Counted from the stretch's first letter, positions 4,355 through 20,238 are shown. The stretch is DNA of 64,000 bases from an uncultured delta proteobacterium (GCA_963802945.1 CAWDKY010000017.1:320001-384000), one strand, 5' to 3'. The notes: a model not told the origin generated them from the letters alone. Numbers and translations: made by a program.

Positions 4355-5242
4355 TTAACCTCCCTTTTTTTCATTAAGCAATTGTTCTTGTATCTTTTTC
4401 AAGATATTTTCAATTTTTTTCCCCAGGCCGTTACGGCTCAATTCCGGGATGGTTTTCCCCTGGATCATGGCTTCGGTTACCACCGGGTCATAAGGGAGAT
4501 GCCCGGCCACTTCCAGGCCTTTATCCCGGCAATAGGTTTCAATCCGGTCGGACATCTCCTGATTCAGATCATATTTGTTGATGAGGACCGTACCTGGAAT
4601 CTTGAAATGACCGGCCAAATCGAGTACCCGGTTTAGATCATGCAGCCCTGAGAGGGTCGGTTCGGTGACGATCAAAACACCGTCTGCTCCGGTGAGTGAA
4701 GAAATGACCGGACAGCCGATGCCCGGCGGACCATCCACCAAAATCAAGGGCAGCCCTTTGGCCTCGGCTAGTTGCTGAGCTTTACCGCGGATAAGGGCCA
4801 CCAGCATCCCTGAATTCTCCTGTCCCGCGCCCAACTGGGCATGGACCATGGGTCCAAACCTCGTTTCGGAAACAAACCATTCCCCGCATAGGGCTAAAGG
4901 AAATTCTATGGCATCGACAGGGCAAAAATGGACACACACACCGCATCCTTCACAGGAGGTCGGGTCCACCCGAAAGTCTTCACTGATGGCCTCAAAACGG
5001 CAAGCTAACCGGCATTGCCCACACTCCGTGCATAATTCCTGGTTAATGACCGCCTTCCGTCCCCCCATGTATTCTTCCCGGCTTTTGATCTCGGGTGCAA
5101 GTAATAAATGCAGATCCGGGGCATCCACATCACAGTCGACCAGAACTTTATTCGGAACTATGGCGGCCAGGGCTCCCACCAGGCTGGTTTTGCCGGTGCC
5201 GCCTTTTCCACTTAAAACACATAATTCTTTTGGTTTATTCAT
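4355..5242 (-). CDS. MinD-superfamily P-loop ATPase with inserted 2x[4Fe-4S] ferredoxin (orp-type)
   Basis: SGKGGTGKT, DCDVDAPDL, CTECGQCRLAC, CEGCGVCVHFCP, DGPPGIGCP, VTEPT. Confidence 0.92.
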   Translation of the reverse strand: MNKPKELCVLSGKGGTGKTSLVGALAAIVPNKVLVDCDVDAPDLHLLLAPEIKSREEYMGGRKAVINQELCTECGQCRLACRFEAISEDFRVDPTSCEGCGVCVHFCPVDAIEFPLALCGEWFVSETRFGPMVHAQLGAGQENSGMLVALIRGKAQQLAEAKGLPLILVDGPPGIGCPVISSLTGADGVLIVTEPTLSGLHDLNRVLDLAGHFKIPGTVLINKYDLNQEMSDRIETYCRDKGLEVAGHLPYDPVVTEAMIQGKTIPELSRNGLGKKIENILKKIQEQLLNEKKGG

Positions 5243-6086
5243 TGGAATATTTTTCTATCGGTCCCTTGATTTTTTCAAAAAGAACTTGAAATTGTTCCTT
5301 CAACTCGGGACGTATTTCAACGAGCGATTGTCCCTTCGCATAACCTTCGGCAATCCGGCGTTCAAATGGTATTTCCATTAGTAAAGGGATTCCTTTGGAT
5401 TGCAGATAGGTCTTGGTCTCATTATTTCCAACGTCGGCCCGGTTCAGGATCACACCACAAGGAATATCTAAAGTTTTTAAAGCCGCTATGGCCAACTTTA
5501 AATCAAAAAGGCCGAAAGGAGTCGGTTCGGTCACCAGGATGGTATAATCCGATCCTTTGACGGTCTGGACCACAGGGCAGGAAGTCCCCGGTGGGGCATC
5601 CAGTATGGCCAATATGTCATTCTTAATCCGCTTTTTAACCTCCCGGATCAAAGGAGGAGACATGGGTTCCCCGACCCGCAGCCGGCCATGAACAAAATGA
5701 ATGGAACCGGTCCAGCCCTCCTCAATTTCTCCCAATTCTTTCTGTGAAGGGATCAAGGCCTTTGGCTCACAGACCAGAAAGCAACCACCACAGGCATGAC
5801 ACATTTCAGGAAACGTAATGATTGTTTCTCCCAACACCAGGATGGCTTTGAACTGGCACAACTTCGAACAGGCCCGGCAATAGGTGCATTTTTCTTCATC
5901 AACCTGCGGGATCTGGAGATAAACCGTCTCTTTTTTCTCCCAACGGGGTTTCATGAAAATGTGTCCGTTGGGGGCTTCTACATCACAATCTAAAAGCTGC
6001 ACCGGTTCTTTCAGGGACAAGGCCAGGGCCACAGCCACACTGGTTTTGCCTGTTCCGCCTTTGCCGCTGGCTACACTAATGATCAC
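5235..6086 (-). CDS. MinD-superfamily P-loop ATPase with inserted 2x[4Fe-4S] ferredoxin (paralog)
   Basis: SGKGGTGKT, DCDVEAPN, CTYCRACSKLC, CHACGGCFLVC, DAPPGTSCP. Confidence 0.92.
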   Translation of the reverse strand: MIISVASGKGGTGKTSVAVALALSLKEPVQLLDCDVEAPNGHIFMKPRWEKKETVYLQIPQVDEEKCTYCRACSKLCQFKAILVLGETIITFPEMCHACGGCFLVCEPKALIPSQKELGEIEEGWTGSIHFVHGRLRVGEPMSPPLIREVKKRIKNDILAILDAPPGTSCPVVQTVKGSDYTILVTEPTPFGLFDLKLAIAALKTLDIPCGVILNRADVGNNETKTYLQSKGIPLLMEIPFERRIAEGYAKGQSLVEIRPELKEQFQVLFEKIKGPIEKYSNE

Positions 6087-7323
6087 AAACGTTTTCTCCG
6101 GTAATCAAGGTTTGATTGATATAATGGGCAACCAATTCCTCCAGACCCAATTGCGGCGCCCCGGTTAATACCTTGATGCCCTGTTCATTGAAAAGGCTGA
6201 TCGCCCTCTGGCCCATGCCGCCGGCAATAATCAGATTAACCCCTTTTTCTCCCAACCAACGCGGCAGGAGGCCGGGTTCATGGGGAGGAGGGGTGACCAT
6301 TGTTTTATGGACAATGTTCTTCCCTTGTAAATCGATCAGGGCAAACTGTTCGCAGTGACCAAAATGATTACAAAGGATACCCTCAGCCATGGGGATGGCA
6401 ATCTTTACACTGTCAACTATTTGATTATTGGAATCCATTTCAGATATAACCTCCGTTATTGGTTTTATTATTTCCTTTCGGGCTTGGTTGGCTGTAAAGA
6501 CTATTTTATCGATAATACCCTCCAGGGCAGTTTTAACAGCCTGGGACAAGGCATGAAAAAGATAAGCCTCTCCTTGATCGCCCATTTCCATTAGCCGGAT
6601 ATCAAAAGGGATACTTCCCAAAAAGGGGACTTGCATTAAAACGGCCGTTTGTTTCCCCCCGCCTTTTTTGAATATGGCCGACTCCTGTCCGCAATGAGGA
6701 CAGATATAACCGCTCATGTTTTCCACCAATCCCAATATAGGCATTTTGACCTGACGGCAAAAATTGATGGATTTTCTGACATCGGATAAGGAGATCTCTT
6801 GGGGGGTGGTAACAATGATCGCCTGGGCATCTGGGATGGTCTGGGCCACGGTCAGGGGCTCATCGCCTGTTCCCGGCGGGGAATCGATGATCAAGAAATC
6901 CAAGTCGTCCCAAATGACATCGGCAAGGAACTGGCGAATGACACCGATTTTTACAGGCCCCCGCCAGATGGTTGGGGCATCCTTATCGGGCATCAGCACC
7001 TCAATAGAGATCATTTTTAAATTGGCATTTACAGGCACTGGAGAAATTCCCTTTTCCGGTTCAAAGGAGGCTAGGCCGCCACGTCCGAGCATCCGCGGGA
7101 TACTGGGACCATGGAGGTCCACGTCCATAAGTCCGACCTGAAAGCCTTTTTGAGCTAGTCCGGCGGCCAGGTTTACGGCCAAACTACTTTTCCCCACGCC
7201 CCCCTTTCCGCTCATGACCAATAATTTATTCTTAATCCGGGATAATGACTTGTTAATTAAGACATCCTCGGCCCTCCTCTGGGATTCGTGTTCCATATTG
7301 GAATCCTGCGCACAACCACTCAT
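6076..7323 (-). CDS. Mrp/NBP35 (ApbC) Fe-S carrier ATPase fused to a C-terminal NifB/NifX domain (MrpORP-like)
   Basis: SGKGGVGKS, DVDLHGPS, DSPPGTGDE, ENMSGYICPHC, then KIAIP..LCNHFGHCEQF..AGGMGQRA; likely start MSGCAQ at 7323. Confidence 0.92.
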   Translation of the reverse strand: MSGCAQDSNMEHESQRRAEDVLINKSLSRIKNKLLVMSGKGGVGKSSLAVNLAAGLAQKGFQVGLMDVDLHGPSIPRMLGRGGLASFEPEKGISPVPVNANLKMISIEVLMPDKDAPTIWRGPVKIGVIRQFLADVIWDDLDFLIIDSPPGTGDEPLTVAQTIPDAQAIIVTTPQEISLSDVRKSINFCRQVKMPILGLVENMSGYICPHCGQESAIFKKGGGKQTAVLMQVPFLGSIPFDIRLMEMGDQGEAYLFHALSQAVKTALEGIIDKIVFTANQARKEIIKPITEVISEMDSNNQIVDSVKIAIPMAEGILCNHFGHCEQFALIDLQGKNIVHKTMVTPPPHEPGLLPRWLGEKGVNLIIAGGMGQRAISLFNEQGIKVLTGAPQLGLEELVAHYINQTLITGENVCDH

Positions 7324-7530
7324 ATCTGAAACTCCTTTCAACTTTGTTTTTTGTTTTAAATTTTTCTTTATTTTCAAAAACTATTTTTCTCTAACACTCT
7401 TTTGTTTCTTACAGAGTTCACAGAGAGCACCGAGTTTGAGCCCCACCCCCGGAGGAGCGAGAGGTGGGCCCCCTTCAGGGGTGGGACTCGCCCGGCGTTT
7501 GCCGGAAAGGTATTTCTTTCTTTTTTATCT

Positions 7531-7737
7531 TTATTCCCGAACCATAGTGGTCCCGCAGTTGGGACATTTCTTTATATTGCAGGGAATCCCCCGGGCATGG
7601 GGGCTCTTCTGACCACATTTAGGGCAGACACAATTTCCGCCGGCTCCCATACCGGCACCCCTACCCATTCCTCGTCCTGATCCGAGACCTCCACCGGAAC
7701 CTTTTCCGGCCGGGCCGGTACCATCTCTTCTGGGCAT
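7531..7737 (-). CDS. Small Gly-rich protein with zinc-ribbon tail (DUF5320-like)
   Basis: MPRRDGTGPAGKG...CVCPKCG...GIPC...CPNCG; ATG 7737 after GGAGGAG. Confidence 0.8.
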   Translation of the reverse strand: MPRRDGTGPAGKGSGGGLGSGRGMGRGAGMGAGGNCVCPKCGQKSPHARGIPCNIKKCPNCGTTMVRE

Positions 7738-7830
7738 AACTCCTCCTATCTTTTTTGTGACTTGAGATGTTTCTCTGTTACTTTTGTTAATTCTGCAATC
7801 CGTATTCCGCAATCTAAAATTGAAGCTGGT

Positions 7831-8196
7831 TTATCCCCAATGCCCCTCAACATTAGGGGACTCGGCAAAGTTGAGTTTCCCTTGTTTATATTGATCAATA
7901 GCCTCCTGAACTTTCCCGGAAATTCCCACCGCCACTTTGATCCCGGCGGCCTGGAGCACTCTAAAGGCCTTGGGGCCGCAATTGCCGGTTAAGACCATCT
8001 TTGCCCCATGTTCCACAACCGTTTGAGCAGCCTGAATCCCGGCGCCTTGAGGCAATTGTAGGTTCTGTCTGTTTTCTAAAACCTCAAATTTCATTGTTTC
8101 CGGATCGACCAATAAGAAAAATCCGGCTCTTCCGAAACGAGGATCGATTTCAGAATCCAGGGTATTTCCTTTGGAACTGACAGCTATTTTCATCAT
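7831..8196 (-). CDS. NifB/NifX-family protein (Orange-protein-like)
   Basis: MKIAVSS..IDPRFGRAGFF..GAGIQAAQ..LTGNCGPKAF..PNVEGHW. Confidence 0.9.
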   Translation of the reverse strand: MMKIAVSSKGNTLDSEIDPRFGRAGFFLLVDPETMKFEVLENRQNLQLPQGAGIQAAQTVVEHGAKMVLTGNCGPKAFRVLQAAGIKVAVGISGKVQEAIDQYKQGKLNFAESPNVEGHWG

Positions 8197-8233
8197 TTCT
8201 TCCTTTTTTTTGAGATTACCTATCATATTTCCA

Positions 8234-8419
8234 TCACCCTTCTTTAATGGTGATTGCCCCTGTTTCACAGACCTCAATGCAACTCTCACAACCCAAACAC
8301 TCATCGGGATTGACTGCTACTGCCTTATTATCCCGAAGTTCAAAAACCTCAACCGGGCAGACCTCCACACAATTACCGTCGCCTATACATTTCTCGGTAT
8401 CTACTGCAACTATAAACAT
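8234..8419 (-). CDS. 2x[4Fe-4S] ferredoxin
   Basis: CIGDGNCVEVCP (Asp in place of one Cys) and CLGCESCIEVC. Confidence 0.88.
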   Translation of the reverse strand: MFIVAVDTEKCIGDGNCVEVCPVEVFELRDNKAVAVNPDECLGCESCIEVCETGAITIKEG

Positions 8420-8772
8420 CCTCTTCGCCTCCCTTGTCTTTTCCTTGCCCGGCAACAGGGCACATTCAATTTTCCTCCCAAGTATTCTTCAATGATGATA
8501 TCCACTTCCCCGTAAAGGGGATAGGCCACCTGGATTCCGAAACGATTCAATCCATTTCTGTCTTCAAGGCGAATACCGCCGCAGATCAATTGTCTTATGC
8601 CCAATCGTTTTAAATAAATTATTTTTTCATCCGGCGGCCAGTCGCTGATATCCAGCTCTCTTTTTTCCACCAGTTGGTCTTTCTCAATTTCCAGGACCAA
8701 TAACTTCCTGGCACAGTCCAGCCGTGGAGAGATGCGATCTAAAAAAATTGGGATTGCCACTTTCATCATCAT
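8410..8772 (-). CDS. NifB/NifX-family protein
   Basis: MKVAIPIF.DRISPRLDCA..LICGGI. Confidence 0.85.
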   Translation of the reverse strand: MMMKVAIPIFLDRISPRLDCARKLLVLEIEKDQLVEKRELDISDWPPDEKIIYLKRLGIRQLICGGIRLEDRNGLNRFGIQVAYPLYGEVDIIIEEYLGGKLNVPCCRARKRQGRRRGCL

Positions 8773-8792
8773 CAGTCCTCTCCTATTATCAA

Positions 8793-8809
8793 TTCAAGAA
8801 GGATGCCAA
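8793..8809 (-). promoter_or_regulatory. Putative sigma-54 -24/-12 promoter of the orp-like operon
   Basis: Minus strand TTGGCATCCTTCTTGAA (TGGCA-N6-TTGa; -12 GC replaced by GA) about 20 nt upstream of the first gene, next to a sigma-54 activator gene. Confidence 0.6.
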
Positions 8810-8877
8810 GAGATCACCTGATTATATATTCTAATAAAATGAAATGGTTATGGTGAGGCAACGAGAATTAGAGGTTT

Positions 8878-8930
8878 AATGAAACTATTGCAAAATGCAA
8901 TAGTTTCATTGCAAAATTGCAATTTACAAT
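8878..8930. promoter_or_regulatory. Putative upstream activator sites for the sigma-54 regulator
   Basis: Inverted repeat AATGAAACTATTGCA-AAA-TGCAATAGTTTCATT followed by further TTGCA..TGCAA/TACAA units, about 70-120 bp upstream of the -24 box. Confidence 0.6.
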
Positions 8931-8941
8931 CTGAGAGAGAA

Positions 8942-10273
8942 TTAAGGAACCCGTTTAAGCTTTCGCCAGAGGGTGGTGGGATGTAGTCCTAATTCCTTTG
9001 CGGCCAGGGTTCGATTTCCTTGGTATTTTTCCAGAGCCTTTTGAATCAATTCCTGTTCTTGGTCTTTCAGCTTTTTTTCGAATGAGAGGTGGGGATTGCC
9101 ACTTTCCTGGGTGCCTCTTTGGTACTCCGGTGGCAGATGAGAGAGTTGTATGGTTGATCTATGGCAGAGCACAAAGGCATGTTCAATGATATTTTCCAAT
9201 TCCCGGATATTTCCAGGGTACTCATAGTGCATTAAAACCTGGAGAACCTTCGGAGATATCTGAGAAATCTTTTTACCGGTCCGGAGATTAAACTTATTAA
9301 GAAAATGTTCAATCAAAAGGGGAATATCTTCGCGGCGTTCTTTCAGGGGAGGCAAGTCTATCTGGACCACTTTAAGCCGGTAATAAAGGTCATCTCTAAA
9401 CGAACCATCTTTTATTAAGCCCTTAAGATTTTTATTGGTCGCCGAGATCAATCGGGCCTTAACCGGTCTGCTGACATTGGAACCCAAAGGCTCATAAGTT
9501 TTTTCCTGAAGGACCCTTAAAAGCTTGGCTTGTACTATCAGCGGAAGATCACCTATTTCATCCAAAAACAAAGTCCCGGAATCGGCCTGGGCAAACTTTC
9601 CCGGCTTGTCTTTTTTAGCATCGGTAAAAGCCCCGCGAACATAGCCGTAGAGCTCTGATTCCAGCAGGGTCTCCGGCAGGGCACTGCAATTGATGGCCAC
9701 AAAGGGTTTTTCTTTTCTGGGACTTAAATGATGGATGGCTTTGGCTAAAAGCTCCTTGCCGGACCCGCTGGGTCCCTGGATGAGAACGGCGCTGTCACTC
9801 TGGGCGATATCGGGAAGATTGTCGAATATTTTTTGCAGGGTATCACTCTTGCTGATGATGTCGTTCACGGTATACTTTTGGGTGATTTCTTTACGCAGGG
9901 CTTCGATAGCACTCAAATCCCGAAAGGTCTCAACCCCTCCCATCATCCTGCCCTGGCTGTCCTTCAAGACGGCGGTTGTTACGCTGATGGGGATGATCTC
10001 TCCCCGGGCATTTAATATATTGACCGGCAAATCGACCACATTTTTCCCGGTCTTTAAGGTCCTGGCCAAGGCACAAGAATCCTGGCAGATCTCGGCCTGA
10101 AAGATTTCAAAGCATTTCTTGCCGATCGCTTCTTCCCTGGGAAATCCGGTAATGGTTTCTGCCGCCTGATTAAAGGAGGTTATTCCCCGGTCTTTATTTA
10201 TGGTAAAGACCCCCTCAGTGATGCTATCTAAAATGATCTTCAAAAAAGGTGATGGCGGTTTGTTTTTCTCCAT
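8942..10273 (-). CDS. PAS-domain sigma-54-dependent activator (OrpR-like)
   Basis: PAS with CFEIFQAEICQDSC, GPSGSGKE, ESELYGYVRGAFTDA, LFLDEIG, PGNIREL, C-terminal Fis-type HTH. Confidence 0.93.
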   Translation of the reverse strand: MEKNKPPSPFLKIILDSITEGVFTINKDRGITSFNQAAETITGFPREEAIGKKCFEIFQAEICQDSCALARTLKTGKNVVDLPVNILNARGEIIPISVTTAVLKDSQGRMMGGVETFRDLSAIEALRKEITQKYTVNDIISKSDTLQKIFDNLPDIAQSDSAVLIQGPSGSGKELLAKAIHHLSPRKEKPFVAINCSALPETLLESELYGYVRGAFTDAKKDKPGKFAQADSGTLFLDEIGDLPLIVQAKLLRVLQEKTYEPLGSNVSRPVKARLISATNKNLKGLIKDGSFRDDLYYRLKVVQIDLPPLKERREDIPLLIEHFLNKFNLRTGKKISQISPKVLQVLMHYEYPGNIRELENIIEHAFVLCHRSTIQLSHLPPEYQRGTQESGNPHLSFEKKLKDQEQELIQKALEKYQGNRTLAAKELGLHPTTLWRKLKRVP

Positions 10274-10422
10274 GGGCCTATTCTCCCAACATTCTTACCC
10301 CTTGTTGGACGTTATATTACCCAAATTAATCCGTTGTCCACCCAAATTATGTTCTTTATGGATTTCGACCGATTTCCACTAAGGTTGAAAATATAGATTT
10401 TTTGTTTAACCTTAATATAAAT

Positions 10423-10653
10423 TCAACCGCTACAGCAACTGCCTGGACTGCTACATGAATTGGGTGCACCACAACAACCCCCAGGGCTATTGTTAAAAAT
10501 TTTACTATCTGAGCGGAGTGTATTGTGGGCGGACAGCAATTTCCCCAGATCGTTGCTGCCGCAGGATTTGCATAATATTTTTTCGTTTTTATCCATGATC
10601 AGGAATTCATTTATTACCCCACAGTGATTACATTTGTATTCGTAAATCGGCAT
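10423..10653 (-). CDS. FmdB-family zinc-ribbon protein
   Basis: MPIYEYKCNHCG..CKSCGS..Cys-rich tail. Confidence 0.85.
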   Translation of the reverse strand: MPIYEYKCNHCGVINEFLIMDKNEKILCKSCGSNDLGKLLSAHNTLRSDSKIFNNSPGGCCGAPNSCSSPGSCCSG

Positions 10654-10685
10654 TTCCTATCCCTCCTCGTAATAAGATTCTACTC

Positions 10686-10790
10686 TTAAATATTGATCCA
10701 CGGGAGATGGGCGAATAGGATGCCTCTTGGTTTGAAATACTGGCTTCCAGGAAGACACCCCACTCTCCTACAATTTCTCAGTCAAACCAT
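10686..10790 (-). pseudogene. N-terminal remnant of a DUF134 (UPF0251) putative DNA-binding protein
   Basis: Translation MV*LRNCRRVGCLPGSQYFKPRGILF resembles the DUF134 start MxRPRxCRRV...YFKPRGIP; stop at codon 3 and truncated. Confidence 0.7.
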
Positions 10791-10805
10791 AATGGATCCC
10801 TCTTC

Positions 10806-10859
10806 TAAAACTAATTAGAAGCATATGCTCATAATTTGTCAAGCCAAAAAATGGTGATC
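10806..10859. repeat. 54-bp direct repeat, copy 1 (minus-strand promoter TTGACA-17-TCTAAT with palindromic operator)
   Basis: taaaactaattagaagcatatgctcataatttgtcaagccaaaaaatggtgatc matches 16346-16399 with 2 mismatches. Confidence 0.9.
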
Positions 10860-11096
10860 GTTAACTCACGTACAAGAATACAATATGATGGTTGGGATCA
10901 GAAGAGCTATTAAGGAGTCCGCTTGTTTTAGGCTCTTAGGGCCGATACTAAAGATGATCAGATTGTAATCTTCAGTTAAAAACGGGGTGCTGAATTTGGC
11001 GACTTTAGAAAGAAGTCAAAGGCCGCTCTACGATCAGATGAGACGGCTTGAAAGTATTTCCATAGATGGTAAGGGAAAGAGCATCCTCTTTTCTTT

Positions 11097-11125
11097 TTGA
11101 CGAAGCCTCCGAAAGACGTTACTAT
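11097..11125 (+). promoter_or_regulatory. Putative sigma-70 promoter for the CoA-disulfide reductase gene
   Basis: TTGACG-17nt-TACTAT. Confidence 0.5.
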
Positions 11126-11174
11126 AGAAAACGTTGATGTTCTTTTGATAATAAACAGCCAGGAGGAATATCCT

Positions 11175-12833
11175 ATGACCGTAAAGTTATTGATAATCGG
11201 TGGTGTCGCGGGCGGGGCAACTGCTGCCGCCAGGGCCCGCAGGCTTGATGAATTTACTGAGATTATTCTCTTCGAAAGGGGGGAATACATATCCTTTGCC
11301 AACTGCGGCCTGCCCTATTACATAGGGAACGTAATAAAAAATCGGGACGATCTGCTGGTGACAACAGCGGAGGCATTCAAGGCCAGGTATAATATAGATA
11401 TAAGGATTTTCACAGAAGTGATAGGGATAGACAGGCTTCATAAACGGGTCAAGGTTAAAGATGTCATGACAGGAAGGGTATATGAAGAGACCTATGACAA
11501 AATTATACTTTCTCCAGGCGCTGAGCCTGTAAAACCCCCTATCAAAGGCATTGATCTGGAAAATATCTTCTCCCTGCGCAATATCCCTGACTCGGATCGG
11601 ATCAAGGCCCGTGTAGACGCCGACAGGCCTAATTCGGCGGTGATCGTCGGAGGCGGATTTATAGGACTTGAGATGGCAGAGAACCTTGTAATCCGGGGTG
11701 TAAAGACAACCATTGTTGAGATGCTTGACCAGTTAATGGCACCTCTTGATTATGAGATGTCGGTGATGGTTAGGGACCATCTGGAACAAAAGGGAGTCTC
11801 ATGTTATCTGGAGGAGGGGGTTGCGGGTTTTTCAGAAAAGGAAGGGCTTATCATTGTCCATACGGAAAAAAACAGGAATATAGAATGTGACCTGGTTATC
11901 CTGTCCATTGGGGTAAGGCCCGAGAACAGACTTGCCAGGGATGCCGGTCTGGCCATAGGAAACAGGGGAGGGATAAAGGTAAATGCGGCCATGAGGACAT
12001 CTGATTCGGATATATATGCCGTGGGGGATGCCGTGGAGATAAAAGACTTCATCTCAGGACTGCCGACCATGACGGCCCTTGCAGGCCCGGCTAATAAGCA
12101 GGGACGCATCGCGGCTGATAACGCCCTGGGAGGCAAATCCGTGTTTAAGGGGACCATAGGGACAGCGGTGGTAAAACTCTTTGACCTTACCGTTGCCTCT
12201 ACTGGGGCGAGCGAGAAGTCCCTGAGGCAAAACAATATCCCTTGTATGGTAAGCTATACCCACTCCAATTCCCACGCCTCCTATTATCCCGACGCTCAGA
12301 TGATGGCGATAAAGTTGATTTTTTCGCCATCAAACGGAAGGATTTTAGGGGCTCAAATCATCGGGATGGAGGGCGTGGACAAACGTATCGATGTATTAGC
12401 CACAGCCATAAGGGGCTCCATGACTGTTTTTGATCTGGAGGAACTTGAACTGGCCTATGCACCACCCTATTCATCGGCAAAGGACCCTGTTAATATAGCA
12501 GGATTTACGGCATCGAACCTTTTAAAGGGGGATGTGAGAAATATTTACTGGAGCGATATTCAAGGTCTTGACCCTGAAAAAGATGTCCTTATTGATCTGC
12601 GCGATAAAGTAGAACTGAATGACTCCGGAACTATCGAAGGATCGCTGAATATACCTTTAAATGAACTGCGCAAAAGGCTGCCTGAACTTGATAAAGAGAA
12701 GAACTATATTCTTTTTTGCGCTGTCGGCCTGAGGGGATACCTTGGCCACCGTATCCTTGACCAGAACGGATTCAAATCCAGAAACCTGAGCGGGGGATAT
12801 AAGACCTATATGATGGGCAGGGAAAAGATATGA
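11175..12833 (+). CDS. CoA-disulfide / persulfide reductase with C-terminal rhodanese domain (CoADR-RHD/Npsr-like)
   Basis: IIGGVAGGA, SFANCGLPY redox Cys, GGGFIGLE, YAVGD, LAYAPPY, rhodanese CAVGLRG; start MTVKLL after AGGAGG. Confidence 0.93.
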   Translation: MTVKLLIIGGVAGGATAAARARRLDEFTEIILFERGEYISFANCGLPYYIGNVIKNRDDLLVTTAEAFKARYNIDIRIFTEVIGIDRLHKRVKVKDVMTGRVYEETYDKIILSPGAEPVKPPIKGIDLENIFSLRNIPDSDRIKARVDADRPNSAVIVGGGFIGLEMAENLVIRGVKTTIVEMLDQLMAPLDYEMSVMVRDHLEQKGVSCYLEEGVAGFSEKEGLIIVHTEKNRNIECDLVILSIGVRPENRLARDAGLAIGNRGGIKVNAAMRTSDSDIYAVGDAVEIKDFISGLPTMTALAGPANKQGRIAADNALGGKSVFKGTIGTAVVKLFDLTVASTGASEKSLRQNNIPCMVSYTHSNSHASYYPDAQMMAIKLIFSPSNGRILGAQIIGMEGVDKRIDVLATAIRGSMTVFDLEELELAYAPPYSSAKDPVNIAGFTASNLLKGDVRNIYWSDIQGLDPEKDVLIDLRDKVELNDSGTIEGSLNIPLNELRKRLPELDKEKNYILFCAVGLRGYLGHRILDQNGFKSRNLSGGYKTYMMGREKI

Positions 12834-12954
12834 CAAAAGGATGTAGGAATGTCCTACGGCCGGGGATTAGGGAAGAGACAATCTGTTCAAAGATAAACGG
12901 CAAGAGTATAGAAGAAGGGAAAATTTATCCCTCACCCGGAGGGTCTTTATCAGG

Positions 12955-13218
12955 TCAGACCTTGGGGTTGGCGCCTTCTGGAAGTAAAGGAGGCAGCAAG
13001 AAAGAGTCAGGATTATGGGGCTTGGCTTCTGGGGTGACCATTGGAGAAACGGATGTGTCCGGACCTGAAGAATTTTTTTCCTCTTGAGAACACTCCTGCT
13101 GGGGATTAACCGGAACGGGGGTGGGATCTTTCTTGTCCAGGGCAAAAGAAAAAGACCCTAATAGAAAAAAAACAATAAAAGCCAGGGGCAGTTTCTTTAA
13201 TTGGTTTAAATTGGTCAT
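12955..13218 (-). CDS. Small hypothetical exported Pro-rich protein
   Basis: Signal-peptide-like KKLPLAFIVFFLLGSFSFA, RBS AAGGAAGG. Confidence 0.55.
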   Translation of the reverse strand: MTNLNQLKKLPLAFIVFFLLGSFSFALDKKDPTPVPVNPQQECSQEEKNSSGPDTSVSPMVTPEAKPHNPDSFLLPPLLPEGANPKV

Positions 13219-13456
13219 GGCCTTCCTTTCTCTAACTGTTTTCTGCCCAGGGAAGAAGATTTTCTAGTTAGGTACTATACCGGGCAGCCTCCAATAATTC
13301 AATCATTCTTTTTTCCAGCATAATTCGGCGTGGAAAGTGGGCCACAGTGTAATATCTTTCTTCCCTAAAGATGATGGTCATGTAACAAATTAAAAATTGC
13401 TTATTTCTGCCATCCCCGTGAAAAGCGGTTCAGTAGGTTGACACTTCAGAAACGAT

Positions 13457-13495
13457 TAAGGCACCTTCTCAGAACGGGAAAGTGCCTTATTTTTT
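13457..13495. terminator. Possible terminator hairpin downstream of the rhodanese gene
   Basis: TAAGGCAC...GTGCCTTA inverted repeat; the T-run is on the plus strand only. Confidence 0.35.
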
Positions 13496-13509
13496 CAAAT
13501 ATTGAGATA

Positions 13510-14403
13510 TTACGGCTCGACGGGTGCCTTGGGGTCTTTCATCCACTCCTCTGTTGATCCATCATATGTTTTTACGTTTTTATAACCCAGAAGATCGGTC
13601 ATGATAAAGGACCAGGCCGTGGAAACCTTGCCCGTATCGCAATAGAGGATGACCTCTTTGTTCGTGTCCGCTCCAATGACTGCTGTCACAAGGGCAGCGA
13701 GGTCCGCTTTGCTTTTAAATAGCCCTTCTTTTGTGTAGGCTTGTGAAGTCGGGAAATTGACCGCTCCTTTGATTCTCCCCGGTTTGGCGACGAAATCCAT
13801 TTTCTTTATTCCCTGGTAGAAATCAAGCTCTCTGACATCAACGATCATAACCTTACCGATGGCATTCATAACATAGTCTTTATTGGCGAGCATAACTTCC
13901 TTGGCCTTGACTTGATACTTAGTCGGTTTGGATTTTACTAGGTCTGTGGAAAGGGTCTTTTTATCAGCTGCCCACTTGTCGAAACCTCCATCCAGGATAG
14001 CCACATCCCCGATACCTGCGTATTTGAGAGTCCAGGCAACCCGAGAGATATCGGTGCGGTTCGGGATCGTATCGGCTTTTCCAACGATAACGACCAGCGA
14101 TTCGGGACCAATACCGGCGGCGCTGATAACATCAGAGAGGTCGTCCAAAGGGGGGATCTCGTTTCTCAAACCGCCTTTCATAATAGCCCAGGAACCATAG
14201 ATGACATTGAGCGCCTTGGGGATATGCCCAGTCTTATAATCTTCGACCTTCCTGATGTCGACGATGATAAGTTTCGGGTTATTGATATTTTTTTCCAGCC
14301 AATCGGTGGATACAATGGGTTCGATATCTCTCGCCATGGAGGCGAAAGGAATGATGAGCCCAAGAAGAACTAAAACGAGGCTAAGCCTAAGTGATCTTTT
14401 CAT
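13510..14403 (-). CDS. Exported tandem-domain rhodanese / sulfurtransferase
   Basis: Signal peptide, IVSTDWL, GHIPKA, LDGG, GRIKGA, catalytic YCDTGKVST, YDGSTEEW; start overlaps the cytochrome stop (TAATG). Confidence 0.92.
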   Translation of the reverse strand: MKRSLRLSLVLVLLGLIIPFASMARDIEPIVSTDWLEKNINNPKLIIVDIRKVEDYKTGHIPKALNVIYGSWAIMKGGLRNEIPPLDDLSDVISAAGIGPESLVVIVGKADTIPNRTDISRVAWTLKYAGIGDVAILDGGFDKWAADKKTLSTDLVKSKPTKYQVKAKEVMLANKDYVMNAIGKVMIVDVRELDFYQGIKKMDFVAKPGRIKGAVNFPTSQAYTKEGLFKSKADLAALVTAVIGADTNKEVILYCDTGKVSTAWSFIMTDLLGYKNVKTYDGSTEEWMKDPKAPVEP

Positions 14404-15677
14404 TATTTTTCTCCTTTTATTGGTTTTGGTTTATAAAGTAAACATTCGTTTGCTTTGGAACCGTTCTTGATCAGAGCTTCTTTTGTCAGGAAACCTTTAT
14501 TCTCGACATGGCAGATCTCGCAGGAACGGGTCCGGTCGGTTCTCTTTTTAATGTTGTGTGCTGTTGTGTCCCAGTAGTTGGGGAGCGTGTCGTAACGGTT
14601 CATTTTAATCCCGGCGCTTTTAAAGGTGTCCCGGACTGTAGGGGTAAGCCGCAGGGTCGTTATAGTTTTTTTGTCTTTGGAGCTTAAACCGAGAAAGAAG
14701 TCCGGTTTGGATGTGGCCCCTTTTCCCAGGTGACAGCTGTAGCAATTTCTGTAAGCTCCTCCGGAGTGGCAGGCATAGCAGCTTACCCTGTCCTTGTGTT
14801 GGGCGTGGGAGGTCTTGGCCTTTTCCGTCTTTTCATCTCCCGCCTTATGACAGTTGATGCAGGCCGGCTTTTCCTTCACTTCCTTTTTTGTTTTGTAGGC
14901 CGTTGAGGTGCCATGAAATTCCGCCTTCTTATGGCAATCCAGGCAGGTCATTCCCTTTTGATAATGAATATCGGCCGCGCCGCCATACTCGCCTGTGAAT
15001 TCCGGGTACACCCGGCCTCCATGGCATACGGCACAGGTCTTTCCGTCATCCCTGGCGACGAACTTGTGATTCTGAATAAAACCTGTGCTGATCCCGCTTA
15101 CCTTGGGGGATTTTACATGGCAGTCGCCGCAGGAGGCATGACAGCTCCTGCAGGATTGCTGGAATACCTTTTTGTCGAATATCCCCAGATCTTTTTTTGA
15201 GAACCTTCCTGAAACTCCATGGCGAAAGCCGGCAGTGGTGAAATGAAGGGAGTTTTTATAGGTCTGGGGTGCATCTTCATGGCATTGGCCGCAAAGCTTA
15301 TGATCTGCTGAAGGTTTTTTCACCACCCCGATATGGGCCTTGGACTTATCCTCGGCCTTATCATTCCCCTTGTGACAGAAAACGCACCCTCCGACTAAAT
15401 GGGGTTCGGTTTTGATCAGCTTTTCATCAACAAGGAACGCTTTATATTGCAGTTCCGCCGGGACCGACGGAGGGGCACCTGCTCACCCTTCCCCGGCTTC
15501 GATGGCTACCTTAACGGGTTTGTGGAGCGTCTGGAGCAGCTTTTCACTCGTGTGGCATTTCACGCAACTGCTTTCGCCGGCGTAGGTCAAGTAAAAAGAT
15601 AAGGAAAGAGAGGCAACCAGAAAACCAACAATGGTCCATACTATCTTGGTTTTTCTTTTTACCTGAACAGATTTCAT
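14403..15677 (-). CDS. Exported 11-heme c-type cytochrome, predicted selenoprotein (Sec at TGA 15485-15483)
   Basis: ORFs 15483-15692 and 14403-15326 are in the same frame; after TGA the frame stays open (AGAPPSVPAELQYKAFLVDEKLIKTEPHLVGGCVFCHKG...) and carries an extra CxxCH; 11 CxxCH in total; SECIS-like hairpin. Confidence 0.85.
15449..15482 (-). other. Putative bacterial SECIS element
   Basis: UGA-GCAG-GUGCCCC-UCCGUCG-[GUCC]-CGGCGGA-A-CUGC: 7-bp upper stem, G-first apical loop 18 nt after UGA, GCAG/CUGC lower stem. Confidence 0.75.
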
Positions 15678-15753
15678 GAAACCCTCGGTCAATAGACAAT
15701 AGAACGCAACCTTTATTATACAGCATTAAAAAGGCAGGTCATCAAACTCTATA

Positions 15754-16116
15754 TTATCCTTCATGGCATCCGTGCTCATGTTGACTGCAGGCAATTCCGG
15801 AATCGCTCAATTTGCCTGTGAGCCAACTTTCGGCAACATTTTTTACATTGCCGGAACATCCTCGCAAAACCTGGATGCCGTGGCTGGTTAAAACATTTAC
15901 TGCTCCTTGTCCCATATTGCCGGCCAGCATATATTTTACACCCATTTGTGCCAATATTTGAGCAATATCTGATTTACAGCCACAACCAGCCGGAGGTGTA
16001 ATCCTTTCCTCTGAAAGTATTTTGTTTTTGTCACCAATAGTGAAAACCGTGAAGCATTCGCAATGCCCAAAGTGTTCATCCACCTGATCCTGACATGAAG
16101 GTAATGCTATTTTCAT
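15754..16116 (-). CDS. NifB/NifX-family protein
   Basis: MKIALP..VDEHFGHCECF..GCGCKS..LAGNMGQGA. Confidence 0.9.
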   Translation of the reverse strand: MKIALPSCQDQVDEHFGHCECFTVFTIGDKNKILSEERITPPAGCGCKSDIAQILAQMGVKYMLAGNMGQGAVNVLTSHGIQVLRGCSGNVKNVAESWLTGKLSDSGIACSQHEHGCHEG

Positions 16117-16145
16117 GACGTACTCCTTTTTTTAATGAATTTTTT

Positions 16146-16340
16146 TTACGTCCGCCTTTTACAATGCGGGCATATGGTCGTATCCTGCGCTTCGCAGAAA
16201 ACATTAAATATTTTACGGCATTGTTGACACTTCAATTGTTTGGTTTCTTTGATTGAAATCTCTCCACCTTCTATTTTTAGTGCCTTCCCATTAACGAGAA
16301 CGTCAGCGATTTTTTTATTCGCCGATTTAATAATCCTTCC
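16146..16340 (-). pseudogene. C-terminal remnant of a DUF134 protein, no start codon or RBS
   Basis: GRIIKSANKKIADVLVNGKALKIEGG followed by CQQC..CPHC; begins immediately after the promoter repeat. Confidence 0.72.
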
Positions 16341-16345
16341 AATTT

Positions 16346-16399
16346 TAAAACTAATTATAAGCATATGCTCATAATTTGTCAAGCAAAAAAATGGTGATC
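16346..16399. repeat. 54-bp direct repeat, copy 2 (minus-strand consensus promoter TTGACA-17-TATAAT at 16382-16354 with palindrome TTATGAGCATATGCTTATAA)
   Basis: Near-identical to 10806-10859. Confidence 0.9.
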
Positions 16400-16419
16400 A
16401 TTGCTGGGCCAAAAATAGC

Positions 16420-16460
16420 TTGACATTGCCAAATAATGAATATATGATTATATAATCATA
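16420..16460 (+). promoter_or_regulatory. ars promoter with palindromic operator
   Basis: TTGACA-17-TATGAT; perfect 18-bp palindrome TATGATTATATAATCATA overlapping the -10. Confidence 0.75.
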
Positions 16461-16479
16461 ATTGCATGGAGGAAAATAT

Positions 16480-16797
16480 ATGGAGGATAGAATCATTGCC
16501 TTGGAGGCAGAAATTTTAAAGGCCCTGGCCCAGCCCACTCGATTGAAAATCCTCGAATGCTTACGTGAAGGGGAGCGGTGCATCTGCGAGATCGTGCCGG
16601 TTATTAACGGCGAGCAATCCAACATCTCCAGACATATTTCCCTGATGCAGAAAACCCGATTAATTTCTTCACGCAAGGACGGAGTGAAGGTCATGTTGAA
16701 GATTCAAGATCCGCAGATTTTCGACCTCCTGGATCGGGTAAATAAAATTTTGAAGAGGCAGATGCAAGAACAAAATAAATTAATGGCGAAATTGTAA
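16480..16797 (+). CDS. arsR: ArsR/SmtB-family repressor
   Basis: LKALAQPTRLKILECL.EGERCICEI..QSNISRH; RBS GGAGG before MEDRII. Confidence 0.88.
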   Translation: MEDRIIALEAEILKALAQPTRLKILECLREGERCICEIVPVINGEQSNISRHISLMQKTRLISSRKDGVKVMLKIQDPQIFDLLDRVNKILKRQMQEQNKLMAKL

Positions 16798-16818
16798 TCT
16801 GCCGACAAGGAATGATTT

Positions 16819-17766
16819 ATGATTAAATATTTGGCCGACTTATTGGTTTATCAGTGGATAGGAATTCAGTCTGGGACCAGGTTGGGAGAATCTTTAGACT
16901 TTTTCTTCTATGATACTATAAAAGTTTTTTTGCTCCTCATAGTAATTATTTTTGTAGTGGCGATCATACGGAGTTTCTTTCCCCCTGAGCGCTCACGTAA
17001 ACTGCTTGGTCATCGAAGGGAGTATGTAGGAAACTTTCTGGCAGCTTTATTGGGCATCGTTACGCCCTTTTGCTCCTGCTCCGCCGTACCGATGTTTATC
17101 GGCTTCATCGAATCGGGTCTGCCTTTAGGCATAACTTTCTCTTTTCTTATTTCCTCACCGACTGTAAATGAAGTGGCTCTGGTCATGCTCTGGGGCTTGT
17201 TTGGATGGAAGATTGCCCTTCTCTATACCGCTACAGGGGTTGTTATGGCCTTTTTTGCCGGTATCGTTATCGGAAAATTGAAATTAGAGCATCTGGTTGA
17301 AGAATATGTTTACCGGATCAAGATGGGTGAAGCGGAAATGTCCGTTCCTACCTGGAAAGAAAGGCTGGAATACGCTCGTGACTATACGAAAGATATACTC
17401 AGACGGGTATGGTTGTTCGTTCTTATCGGCATTGGATTAGGGGCCTGGATTCATGGTTATGTTCCTATGGATTTTATTATAAAATACGCAGGGCCCGGCA
17501 ACCCATTTGCCGTGTTTGTGGCGGTTCTTATCGGCATTCCCTTATACTCTAACGCCGCTGGGACAATCCCTATCGTTCAAGCCCTGGTAGAAAAAGGACT
17601 TCCTATGGGCACGGCGCTGGCTTTTATGATGTCCTTTGTGGCCATATCGACGCCCGAGTTGATTATCCTGCGCAAGGTTATTAAACCGAAGTTGATTGCT
17701 ATTTTCGTCGGGATTGTCTCTGTGGCGATTATCATCATCGGCTATCTGTTCAATGCCGTTTTATAA
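16819..17766 (+). CDS. DUF318 / ArsP-family permease
   Basis: FFFYDTIK, TPFCSCSAVP, FLISSP, GIPLYSNAAG. Confidence 0.88.
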   Translation: MIKYLADLLVYQWIGIQSGTRLGESLDFFFYDTIKVFLLLIVIIFVVAIIRSFFPPERSRKLLGHRREYVGNFLAALLGIVTPFCSCSAVPMFIGFIESGLPLGITFSFLISSPTVNEVALVMLWGLFGWKIALLYTATGVVMAFFAGIVIGKLKLEHLVEEYVYRIKMGEAEMSVPTWKERLEYARDYTKDILRRVWLFVLIGIGLGAWIHGYVPMDFIIKYAGPGNPFAVFVAVLIGIPLYSNAAGTIPIVQALVEKGLPMGTALAFMMSFVAISTPELIILRKVIKPKLIAIFVGIVSVAIIIIGYLFNAVL

Positions 17767-17783
17767 AGAGGAGGTAAAGAGTC

Positions 17784-18017
17784 ATGAAAAAGATCGAAGT
17801 ACTTGGAATGGGTTGCGCCAATTGCACTAAGTTATATCAAAATGTATTGGCAGCGGTCAAGCTGAGCGGTAATGAGGTAGAAGTTGCCAAGATTGAGGAT
17901 ATTCAAAAAATCATGTCCTATGGGGTGATGTCCACACCGGCTTTGGTCGTGGATGGTGTCGTCAAAGCCGTAGGCAAAATTCCGAAACCGGAAGAAATAA
18001 AGGAATGGATTAAATAA
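17784..18017 (+). CDS. Small thioredoxin-family redox protein (MTH895-like)
   Basis: IEVLGMGCANC..YGVMSTPALVVDG. Confidence 0.88.
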   Translation: MKKIEVLGMGCANCTKLYQNVLAAVKLSGNEVEVAKIEDIQKIMSYGVMSTPALVVDGVVKAVGKIPKPEEIKEWIK

Positions 18018-18090
18018 AAATTGGATTATTTTTTATCTTAGCGTGGAATAAATCATTGCAAAAGATTCTGTATCTCTGAAGGAGGAAGAA

Positions 18091-19185
18091 ATGGAACAAG
18101 CCGTTGCTGTAAAGAAGTTATCTTTTCTGGATCGGTTTCTGACGCTGTGGATATTTTTGGCTATGTTTATTGGTGTAGGATCAGGATATCTCTATCCCAA
18201 AGTGGTTCATTTCTGGAATCTCTTCCAATATGACACTACAAATATCCCCATTGCCATCGGCCTAATCCTTATGATGTACCCTCCTTTAGCCAAGGTCAAG
18301 TATGAAGATCTGGGGGAAGTATTTAAAAATTATAAGGTACTTACGCTCTCTCTAGTCCAGAACTGGGTCATCGGCCCTATACTTATGTTCTTCCTGGCTA
18401 TTGTTTTTTTAGCTGGCTATCCTGAATACATGGTGGGCCTGATTATGATCGGCCTGGCCCGCTGCATCGCCATGGTCATCGTCTGGAATGAACTGGCCTC
18501 CGGGGACACCGAATACTGTGCCGGTCTGGTGGCCTTCAATTCCATCTTCCAGGTCCTTTTTTTCTCCCTCTATGCCTATATCTTTATCACCATCCTGCCG
18601 GGCTGGTTCGGCTTGAAAGGCACAGTAGTTGACATCTCCATCGGCCAGATCGCTAAAAGTGTATTTATCTATCTGGGCATCCCTTTTATCGCCGGGATCA
18701 TCACCCGATTCACCCTGATCAAAATCAAGGACAAGACCTGGTATCATGAAAAATTCATCCCCAAAATCAGCCCCATTACGCTGATCGCCCTGCTCTTTAC
18801 CATCATCGTCATGTTCTCCCTCAAGGGGGAATACATCGTCCAATTGCCCCTGGATGTGATGCGCATCGCCTTGCCCCTGGTCATTTATTTTGTGATCATG
18901 TTTTTCATTTCCTTTTATCTGTCCATAAAAGTCAAGGCAACTTACGAGCAGTCCGCCACCTTGAGTTTTACCGCTGCCTCTAATAATTTCGAGCTGGCCA
19001 TCGCCGTGGCCGTAGCAGTCTTTGGCATCAACTCCGGTGCGGCCTTTGCCGCCGTCATCGGCCCTCTGGTTGAAGTGCCGGTCCTGATCAGCCTGGTCAA
19101 TGTAGCCCTCTGGTTTAAGAAACAATATTTTCCCTATGCGCTGGAGACGCCCACCGGGGTGTGCCACGTCAGTTGTAAACCATGA
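18091..19185 (+). CDS. acr3: Acr3 arsenite efflux transporter
   Basis: [53 protein letters not shown]. Confidence 0.95.
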
Positions 19186-19254
19186 GGCAGAAGTTAGGCC
19201 GGAGGAAATAGGCGAGAGGGAAAGAACCTCAAAGAAAAAAGACAGGGTATTTTC

Positions 19255-19686
19255 GTGAAGGAAAAACCGAAAATTCTTTTTCTATGCACCGGCAATTCCT
19301 GCCGGAGTCAAATGGCCGAGGCCTGGGCTCGAGCACTGAAGGGGGATCAGTTGGAGCCTTTTTCGGCCGGGATTCGACCCAAAGGAGTGGATCCGAGAGC
19401 GGTTACGGTCATGGCGGAAACGGGTATTAATATTTCTCACCAAAAAGCCAAAGATATAAATTCACTTGGTGATATGGAATTTGATTTCGTGGTGACCTTG
19501 TGCGACAACGCCCGGGAGTCCTGCCCCTTCTTTCCGGCAAAAACGAAATTACTCCATAGGGGTTTTGAGGATCCTCCGGTCCTGGCTGCTCAGGCCAAAA
19601 GCAATGATGAGGCCATGATACCTTATCGTCGAGTGCGGGATGAGATCAGGGCCTTTGTGGAAACGCTTCCCGACTCCTTGAAATAA
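19255..19686 (+). CDS. arsC: Thioredoxin-coupled arsenate reductase (LMW-PTP fold)
   Basis: LCTGNSCRSQMAE, TLCD..ESCP, FEDP, VRDEI. Confidence 0.93.
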   Translation: MKEKPKILFLCTGNSCRSQMAEAWARALKGDQLEPFSAGIRPKGVDPRAVTVMAETGINISHQKAKDINSLGDMEFDFVVTLCDNARESCPFFPAKTKLLHRGFEDPPVLAAQAKSNDEAMIPYRRVRDEIRAFVETLPDSLK

Positions 19687-20238
19687 GGGGATCTTAGAAA
19701 TCGTTAATTATACTTCCGGTCTTCTTTGCAAACATCCTTATCTTTTGAAGGGTTAAAAGTCGAGCAGCCCGGTTTGTCGCTGAAGGTTCAAGCCGGACAA
19801 TAAGGGAAGGAAAGCCGAGTTTAATAAAACCGATAAGGGCTGATGAGAGAACGCTGAAACTCGCAATCCAGGTCACGAGCCCGCAACCTTCGAAAACGCA
19901 ACCGCTCCTTACGAACACTTGAACCCCTTCTTCCAGCATCGGATAAAGCGAGCCCGGGACGCTGACGTAAAAAAATAGATCGTACTGTCATCTCTTCCGT
20001 TCATACCGTTCTCCTCTCGTAGAATGAAAATAATTCTATAATCCCGAGTAAGTAATTCCAAATCTGAATTTTAAAGCGCTACTCGAAATCATGGACTGAA
20101 TGAACTATTTCGGAGTTTACAGATTCCTCTTTTTTTAGTAAGAGGATACAACATAGTAAAATTTCGGATTGTGGAATGGAGACAAGCCTGAGGGCCTATG
20201 GGAAATGATAAAGTCTGAGATTGTGAAATGAAGAGGCC

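Follow-up and report, generated by a model that had tools for sequence, protein, structure and literature searches.

What is the function of a multihaem cytochrome whose gene carries an in-frame UGA and whose stop codon runs into the start codon of a gene for an exported rhodanese? The question is raised by a 64,000-nucleotide (nt) stretch of DNA from an uncultured delta proteobacterium (GCA_963802945.1 CAWDKY010000017.1:320001-384000), referred to here in its entirety as the window. Positions 11175 to 16116 hold these two genes and, facing them, a gene for a fusion of a coenzyme A disulfide reductase with a rhodanese (CoADR-RHD). A first-pass annotation had taken the three for one sulfur or selenium redox system, a relay leading from periplasm to cytoplasm and possibly tied to a neighbouring arsenic resistance (ars) operon. 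Our comparisons point to the cytochrome and the rhodanese as a conserved pair built around selenocysteine (Sec), for which a redox role in sulfur or selenium metabolism is the best reading by analogy; CoADR-RHD is judged, from its occurrence in related genomes, not to be part of the module.

Read with translation table 11, the cytochrome gene is split into an open reading frame (ORF) of 69 codons, encoding a signal peptide and one CxxCH motif, and a second of 307 codons. Read with TGA as Sec, positions 14403..15692 on the minus strand form a single open frame of 429 codons with one TGA (U70, motif GEG-U-AGAPPSV). Residues are numbered here from the TTG at 15692; counted from the ATG at 15676, which is preceded by GAGGG and is the likely start, the Sec residue is U65. 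Coordinates of these and other features are collected in Table 1.

Conservation of the UGA was assessed by scanning one genome per GTDB species, which gave 399 relatives of the cytochrome; the best 80 loci were kept for counts. The Sec column reads TGA in 78 of the 80 (74 of the 76 resolved first and all 4 others) and never TAA or TAG, the two remaining loci having CGA and GCA. The protein alignment runs across the UGA, with conserved sequence before and after it. A word-indexed database search with the cytochrome returned 517 relatives at E ≤ 0.001. Among the best 120, seven were full length and 113 covered only 72-83% of the query, starting just after the UGA column, as expected with gene callers that stop at TGA. 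Databases hold the family almost only as such N-terminally cut "cytochrome c3 family" records or under the misnomer "sulfurtransferase".

The RNA that follows the UGA is conserved as well. A hairpin resembling a selenocysteine insertion sequence (SECIS) begins 11 nt after the codon, with a 7-bp stem (UCCGUCG/CGGCGGA) and a GUCC loop. It was aligned in the window and 77 TGA loci (78 sequences, 74 distinct), leaving out the two non-TGA loci and one locus that the search pattern missed (L059). The helix is paired in 86.5% of 518 cells in the 74 distinct sequences, compared with 28-55% when the partner columns are slid. All 78 sequences agree at loop positions G22 and U23 and, among the third-codon positions, at 27 and 30. 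Among the 74 distinct sequences, third-codon positions within the stem are almost frozen (U at column 15 and G at column 18 in 71 each; G at columns 27 and 30 in all), whereas those outside it (6, 9, 12, and 24) vary, which indicates a constraint at the RNA level beyond that on the protein. In addition, 10 of 27 distant full-length relatives (about 30% identity) carry Cys at the aligned position, with G-C-G-G opposite G-U-A-G. The conserved TGA and the hairpin with its frozen synonymous sites uphold the cytochrome as a Sec protein; by these comparisons the UGA is very probably a selenocysteine codon.

Several observations weigh against this assignment. The 63-nt stretch after the UGA is not more stable than its shuffles (z 0.27; 114 of 200 fold at least as well), there is little covariation (changes on both sides in 2 of 7 pairs, 5 cells), and the hairpin sits within conserved coding sequence. 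An Rfam scan of positions 10000-17000 at E ≤ 10 gave eight weak matches, with no SECIS family among them and none at its gathering score. At the Sec column, the seven close full-length relatives have R, S, A, W, Y, W, and A; the lack of Cys in all seven is unusual for a catalytic Sec. Both non-Sec loci also lack an adjacent tandem rhodanese (n = 2), which suggests that catalytic function may have been lost in the close relatives that have neither Sec nor Cys.

The decoding machinery adds a further objection. The genome carries selA (627 bits), selD with a TGA of its own, and tRNA-Sec. The selB gene is present outside the window (G000:C30:178927-180864) and is read in three frames: against an intact congener gene, a single extra base stands at each of three places over some 530 nt (~179693 to 180218). 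In the same comparison, 15 further orthologous pairs of long ORFs were all unsplit. The selenoprotein may accordingly not be made in the source organism, and the gene could be silent or decaying there, with the UGA acting as a stop and a mono-haem peptide of 64-69 residues as the sole product. We consider this unlikely, although it is the strongest of the alternatives weighed here. The cytochrome frame is uninterrupted on both sides of the UGA, the other components of Sec decoding are retained, and the selB segments are still 81-98% identical in protein to their congeners. Any decay would be very recent, or the indels are local errors in what is a metagenome-assembled genome with 6.72% contamination. 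Either the assembly is at fault locally or Sec decoding was lost very recently.

The rhodanese is the usual companion of the cytochrome. It contains two rhodanese domains, the second of which bears the catalytic loop C255-D-T-G-K-V-S, and C255 is invariant in 56 partner rhodaneses. Its sequence matches 3hwi over the full length (E 7e-35), and its nearest solved relatives are two-domain thiosulfate sulfurtransferases. The cytochrome TAA (14405-14403) and the rhodanese ATG (14403-14401) have one A in common, and AAGGAG lies 7 nt 5' of that ATG. In 63 of 80 loci a tandem rhodanese is the immediate neighbour of the cytochrome; 60 have it on the downstream side and 3 on the upstream side. Among the other 17, one locus ends 93 nt past the cytochrome and five have another exported rhodanese in the row. 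Natural fusions also occur: two of nine long relatives scanned (P0175, 715 amino acids; P0178, 652 amino acids) have two rhodanese domains behind the cytochrome, and in an Atlas cluster found via a full-length relative (P0028), whose 106 members have 649 amino acids, Rhodanese is present in 100% and Cytochrome_C7 in 98%. On the strength of the gene overlap, the adjacency, the fusions and the invariant catalytic Cys, the predicted pair is a self-contained, translationally coupled two-gene module.

Both products appear to be exported. By inspection, each N-terminus has a basic stretch followed by a hydrophobic one and an AxA-like end (LTYA/GESS in the cytochrome; ASMA/RDIE in the rhodanese), and they look like cleavable signals of the Sec secretion pathway; in an AlphaFold model, residues 7-36 of the cytochrome form one helix. 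Much of the first-pass annotation is therefore sound. The stop/start overlap and both export signals are confirmed, CoADR-RHD does converge on the pair, across 676 nt, and neither a molybdopterin subunit nor a quinol-oxidising partner is found in the window. The gene-neighbourhood survey that it called for places a rhodanese beside the cytochrome in most loci rather than rarely.

Properties of the cytochrome itself suit an enzyme rather than a wire. It has 11 CxxCH motifs, at residues 43, 103, 134, 181, 188, 220, 250, 278, 305, 317, and 391; in 72 relatives, eight of these are fully invariant and the other three invariant or at least 90% conserved. Sec, at residue 70 of 429, follows haem motif 1 and precedes motif 2, in the sequence E-G-U-A-G. 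The 72 sequences have only nine conserved His outside the motifs for 11 haems, so at least two haems are not bis-His ligated via conserved residues. This shortage is one ground for suspecting an enzyme; the other is the fold. An AlphaFold model built from the 72 sequences (pLDDT 88.3, pTM 0.81) was compared exhaustively with known structures by VIA-align, and the core (residues 95-429) matched 1sp3, the octahaem tetrathionate reductase (OTR) of Shewanella oneidensis, with Z 9.6 and a root-mean-square deviation of 4.5 Å over 271 aligned residues; the next match had 4.1. Foldseek gave a weak match to the same structure (E 0.11, TM 0.34) and none at E ≤ 0.001 in the PDB to April 2026, which possibly did not include the MccSep entries 9WT8-9WTC discussed below. 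A sequence search of the PDB returned only local, CxxCH-level matches (best E 7.6e-4). In the model, the protein resembles OTR in its core, though with more haems, and haem 1 and the Sec loop form an N-terminal addition to it. No curated family claims it in an NCBIfam scan at E ≤ 0.01.

The closest functional parallel is MccSep/ExtKL (GSU2937-2936) of Geobacter sulfurreducens, a five-haem Sec polysulfide and selenite reductase encoded beside a rhodanese-like lipoprotein, ExtH (PMC13510729, Sci Adv 2026). The two are alike in being periplasmic multihaem c-type cytochromes with one UGA-encoded Sec and a SECIS-like hairpin. Annotation routinely splits either gene into two ORFs or truncates it, and both have a rhodanese in the row and no molybdopterin subunit. 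They differ in almost every structural detail. MccSep has five conserved CxxCH motifs and the window cytochrome 11. In MccSep, Sec is U325, which belongs to the D-G-U-P loop of an Ig-like domain at the C-terminus (PMC13510729), whereas here Sec stands in an N-terminal loop. In place of ExtH, the partner here is a soluble tandem rhodanese, and there are no porin genes. The MccSep/ExtKL model NF040886 (cut-off 250 bits) does not match the cytochrome at E ≤ 0.01 and has no match in the whole genome at E ≤ 0.001. As far as sequence can tell, the window cytochrome is not a member of the MccSep family, and the likeness would be convergent, not homologous.

OTR, the best structural match of the core, is likewise a periplasmic multihaem enzyme acting on an S-S bond. 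It has eight haems rather than 11, and the Sec-bearing N-terminal segment lies outside the aligned part. A parallel for the division of labour is offered by Sud and Psr of Wolinella succinogenes, in which a periplasmic polysulfide-sulfur transferase feeds polysulfide reductase. There too a rhodanese-type carrier in the periplasm delivers sulfane sulfur to a respiratory reductase, but Psr is a molybdopterin enzyme and Sud has a single domain, whereas a haem/Sec reductase and a tandem rhodanese are proposed here.

By description, DealDRAFT_1917 of Dethiobacter alkaliphilus is also comparable. This Otr/SirA-like multihaem cytochrome, once misnamed "thiosulfate sulfurtransferase", lies beside genes with rhodanese domains and has been proposed as a determinant of sulfur reduction (PMC10376724). 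Four of the 120 listed relatives of the window cytochrome bear the same JGI misnomer; the passages of PMC10376724 that deal with DealDRAFT_1917 do not call it a selenoprotein. A review of selenoproteins (PMC13188914) names ExtKL, a CXXCH protein of the GSU2204 family and a Sec form of OTR, and none of the NCBIfam models for these three matches the window cytochrome at E ≤ 0.01. Full-text literature searches, supplementary data S1 and S2 of PMC13510729 not included, turned up no description of an 11-haem Sec cytochrome.

Related loci suggest where electrons could come from. In 15 of the 80, the row continues with a multihaem cytochrome of about 660 residues, a second rhodanese and a fusion of about 615 residues between a multihaem c and a membrane b cytochrome, which we take to be a CbcL-like quinol-oxidising cytochrome. 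In several loci (L053, L061, L074, and others), a flavin adenine dinucleotide (FAD) flavoprotein of about 510 amino acids with a Tat-like signal and a four-CxxCH cytochrome of about 177 amino acids lie upstream of the Sec cytochrome; from their position, they are possible further members of a respiratory row in Syntrophales-type loci. One relative (P0171, 562 amino acids) has the ten-haem core (query 80-425) behind a NapC/NirT quinol-dehydrogenase domain, which replaces the haem-1/Sec arm. This fusion hints that some members of the family may take electrons directly from quinol.

Combining these comparisons, we propose a mechanism in which the first product would be an exported 11-haem cytochrome whose Sec lies in a loop rich in glycine (EG-U-AG-PP), after haem 1 and ahead of a ten-haem, OTR-shaped core; the second would be a tandem rhodanese of the periplasm that has a single catalytic cysteine. 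From polysulfide, persulfide, or thiosulfate, the rhodanese would take up sulfane sulfur in the form of a persulfide on Cys255 and hand it to the cytochrome. The selenolate would then attack the S-S bond to form an Se-S adduct, which the haem chain would reduce to sulfide, drawing electrons from donors in the periplasm or membrane; in the 15 longer loci, the donor would be the CbcL-like c/b cytochrome of the same row. Here we infer the substrate, the direction of the reaction, the contact between Sec and the rhodanese Cys, and production of the protein in the source organism.

On balance, we lean towards the cytochrome being a molybdenum-free periplasmic reductase of polysulfide or other sulfane sulfur, with the rhodanese as its partner, and think this somewhat better than an even bet. 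The reading draws on the MccSep analogy, the apparent likeness in fold to an S-S-cleaving enzyme, and the dedicated and sometimes fused rhodanese. Three observations tell against it. In the source genome, the pair lacks an accompanying gene for an electron donor: tblastn of the longer row of one locus (L061) against the whole genome at E ≤ 1e-10 found no counterpart of the ~660-residue cytochrome (MHC662), the second rhodanese or the CbcL-like gene. The Sec loop is less confidently modelled than the rest (pLDDT 69 and 77 for residues 61-80). Finally, MccSep has a strictly conserved haem-ligating Cys (PMC13510729), whereas the 72 sequences of the window family have no Cys, apart from those of the CxxCH motifs, that is invariant or nearly so; the chemistry of Sec and a Cys-ligated haem is therefore not transferable as such.

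The same analogy leaves room for a different substrate. MccSep also reduces selenite (PMC13510729), and the pair could mainly be a reductase or detoxifier of selenite, tellurite or similar chalcogen oxyanions, not a sulfur-respiring system. The weak NCBIfam matches lie in this direction, as they come from the "selenite/tellurite reduction operon" of Geobacter, with ExtM/N/O for the cytochrome (E 2e-10 to 4e-10) and ExtH for the rhodanese (NF040901, 50.8 bits, E 1.3e-13). Metalloid-resistance genes also stand beside the module here and in 3 of 80 loci (L075; L081, from Geobacter sp. OR-1; and L086). However, the matches are far under the curated cut-offs (about 40 bits compared with 200-800 for the cytochrome; 200 for ExtH), MccSep prefers polysulfide over selenite (PMC13510729), and a quinol-linked row in 15 loci suits energy metabolism better than detoxification. 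We regard an oxyanion enzyme as improbable, a little more so than a silent gene.

Thiosulfate or tetrathionate could also be the substrate of an OTR- or TsdA-like enzyme, possibly working oxidatively and feeding the haem chain, with the rhodanese handling thiosulfate. The structure of 1sp3 is the only clear fold match, and the partner is a tandem rhodanese of the thiosulfate sulfurtransferase type. The OTR model TIGR04315, however, has no match to the cytochrome at E ≤ 0.01, the Foldseek match to 1sp3 was insignificant at the E value given above, the Sec loop falls outside the OTR-aligned part, and a common fold is no proof of a common substrate. The chance of this reading seems to us small, about as small as that of the oxyanion enzyme or a shade less.

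Far less likely is the full relay of the first-pass annotation, in which periplasmic cytochrome and rhodanese and cytoplasmic CoADR-RHD make up one sulfur/selenium system. The fusion protein is what it was said to be. It matches 3icr (E 7e-183, residues 4-545), 3nta (2e-178) and 8a56, "Coenzyme A-persulfide reductase" (3e-158), over the full length, it has the Pfam domains Pyr_redox_2, Pyr_redox_dim, and Rhodanese, and its redox Cys (ANCGLP) and rhodanese Cys (FCAVGLRG) are present by inspection; TIGR03385, at 507 bits, falls short of its 578.8-bit cut-off. By these homologies it is a true enzyme of the CoA-persulfide-reductase (Npsr) type. Its relatives are per-/polysulfide or CoA-persulfide reductases by the names of the solved ones; both of the convergent neighbours would handle sulfane sulfur.

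Yet the genes do not travel together. A CoADR-like match (30% identity) lies near the cytochrome in just 1 of 80 loci. Among 30 relatives of the source genome (18 of the same family, 13 of these of the same genus, and 12 others), the 346-residue post-UGA part of the cytochrome is matched in none of the 18 same-family genomes and in 1 of the 12 others, whereas the CoADR gene has DNA matches of 66-68% identity in 8 of the 18. In four congener regions of 14-20 kb, CoADR adjoins a sigma-54 activator in three and the cytochrome or rhodanese in none. In this survey the module is patchily distributed and sits next to CoADR only in the source genome; moreover, the genes lie on opposite strands, and no transporter bridges the two compartments. 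The proposal of a polysulfide, thiosulfate or selenium redox system thus holds in part: a sulfur or selenium role without molybdopterin remains the best reading by analogy with MccSep, and the CoADR relay falls away. Handling of thioarsenate or another arsenic-sulfur compound together with the adjacent ars operon, also raised by the first-pass annotation, is hardly credible, as ars genes accompany the module only in the window and the three loci named above (in L081 an arsR-permease pair follows it), here stand on the opposite strand with their own regulator, and MccSep is described as inactive with arsenite (PMC13510729).

Table 1. Features of the window around the cytochrome-rhodanese pair (positions counted from the first nucleotide of the window).
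Feature	Position	Strand	Remarks
Cytochrome c selenoprotein gene, exported, 11-haem	14403..15676	-	ATG 15676, alternative TTG 15692; end includes TAA
In-frame UGA, probable Sec codon	15483..15485	-	TGA column conserved among related loci
SECIS-like hairpin	15454..15471	-	Fold; pairing and loop conservation in alignment
Tandem rhodanese gene, exported, 297 amino acids	13510..14403	-	PF00581 twice, E 1e-32
Sigma-70-like promoter match, ATGACC-16-TATAAT, 10/12	15715..15742	-	60-nt gap upstream of cytochrome; consensus scan
CoADR-rhodanese fusion gene	11175..12833	+	Convergent with pair, 676-nt gap; judged outside module
ORF, 87 codons	12955..13218	-	Hydrophobic N-terminus; between rhodanese and CoADR
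NifX-like (Nitro_FeMo-Co) gene, 120 amino acids	15754..16116	-	Upstream of cytochrome; inside 11175-16116, not named in the first-pass annotation
NifX-like gene with gene for 78-amino-acid protein	15754..16382	-	DUF134-like region and zinc ribbon in the 78-amino-acid protein
ars operon	16462..19686	+	Starts 346 nt beyond the interval 11175-16116
Intergenic repeat, about 120 nt	11012..11135		Just upstream of CoADR-RHD
Orange-protein (ORP)-type cluster	4355..10273	-	
Two MinD-like ATPases with 4Fe-4S ferredoxin inserts	4355..6086		ORP cluster
MrpORP	6076..7377		ORP cluster; 533 bits, NCBIfam cut-off 450
NifX-like genes	7831..8304; 8410..8772		ORP cluster
Small ferredoxin	8234..8455		ORP cluster
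PAS sigma-54 activator	8942..10273		ORP cluster

Promoter scans of the region were of limited help. The sigma-70-like consensus gave 17 sites compared with 11.1 expected, so the match upstream of the cytochrome is weak evidence. A sigma-54 consensus pattern gave 37 matches compared with 43.7 expected, none of them before the cytochrome-rhodanese module. With the same pattern and up to two mismatches, no sigma-54 consensus was found in positions 10654-11174 upstream of CoADR-RHD. The activator of the ORP-type cluster has a homologue (34-38% identity) adjoining CoADR-RHD in three congener regions (L108, L109, L111), an adjacency which suggests that it may regulate CoADR-RHD.

With 72-93% identity, the intergenic repeat between activator and CoADR-RHD recurs at nine other sites in the genome (on seven other contigs and elsewhere on C17) and in every one of the 13 same-genus genomes. 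This distribution speaks for a native contig rather than a contaminant. Base composition over positions 8000-21000 shows no island signature (GC 0.38-0.52).

The ars operon, transcribed from the strand opposite to the cytochrome, encodes an ArsR/SmtB regulator, a 315-amino-acid permease with a TPFCSCS motif (SaoE/SO_0444-like, below cut-offs), a thioredoxin of the MTH895/ArsE type, ACR3 (464 bits, over its cut-off) and an LMWP-type ArsC. The NifX-like and DUF134-like genes upstream of the cytochrome were considered as operon members and rejected; a NifX-like gene occurs in 2 of 80 loci and is not adjacent. The 87-codon ORF has no Pfam or NCBIfam match, was not found in related loci, and may be no gene.

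In the window itself, these results tell a real conserved module apart from an accidental neighbour, CoADR-RHD, and draw attention to a selB that is possibly inactivated. MccSep, described in 2026, was the first multihaem selenoenzyme and answered a long-standing question about sulfur respiration in Geobacter. The family of the window cytochrome is as widespread (399 relatives in the GTDB species genomes scanned), is unrelated to it in sequence, has eleven haems, and brings its own rhodanese. A broader proposal, which we offer tentatively and put at rather less than an even chance, is that the family represents a second, independently evolved class of Sec multihaem sulfur reductases. A flexible N-terminal Sec arm by haem 1 would take persulfide sulfur straight from a dedicated, sometimes fused, rhodanese, and Sec would be reduced by, or act as axial ligand of, a haem of the OTR-like core. 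Such enzymes would support a cryptic, molybdenum-free sulfur respiration in anaerobes, syntrophic ones among them, of the Desulfobacterota, Nitrospirota, and further phyla, missed by annotation because the gene is cut at the UGA. If the cytochrome is a true sulfur reductase, lists of selenoproteomes would be short of one major family, and many syntrophs and sediment bacteria without Psr, Dsr, or MccSep would gain an unrecognised route in the sulfur, and perhaps the selenium, cycle.

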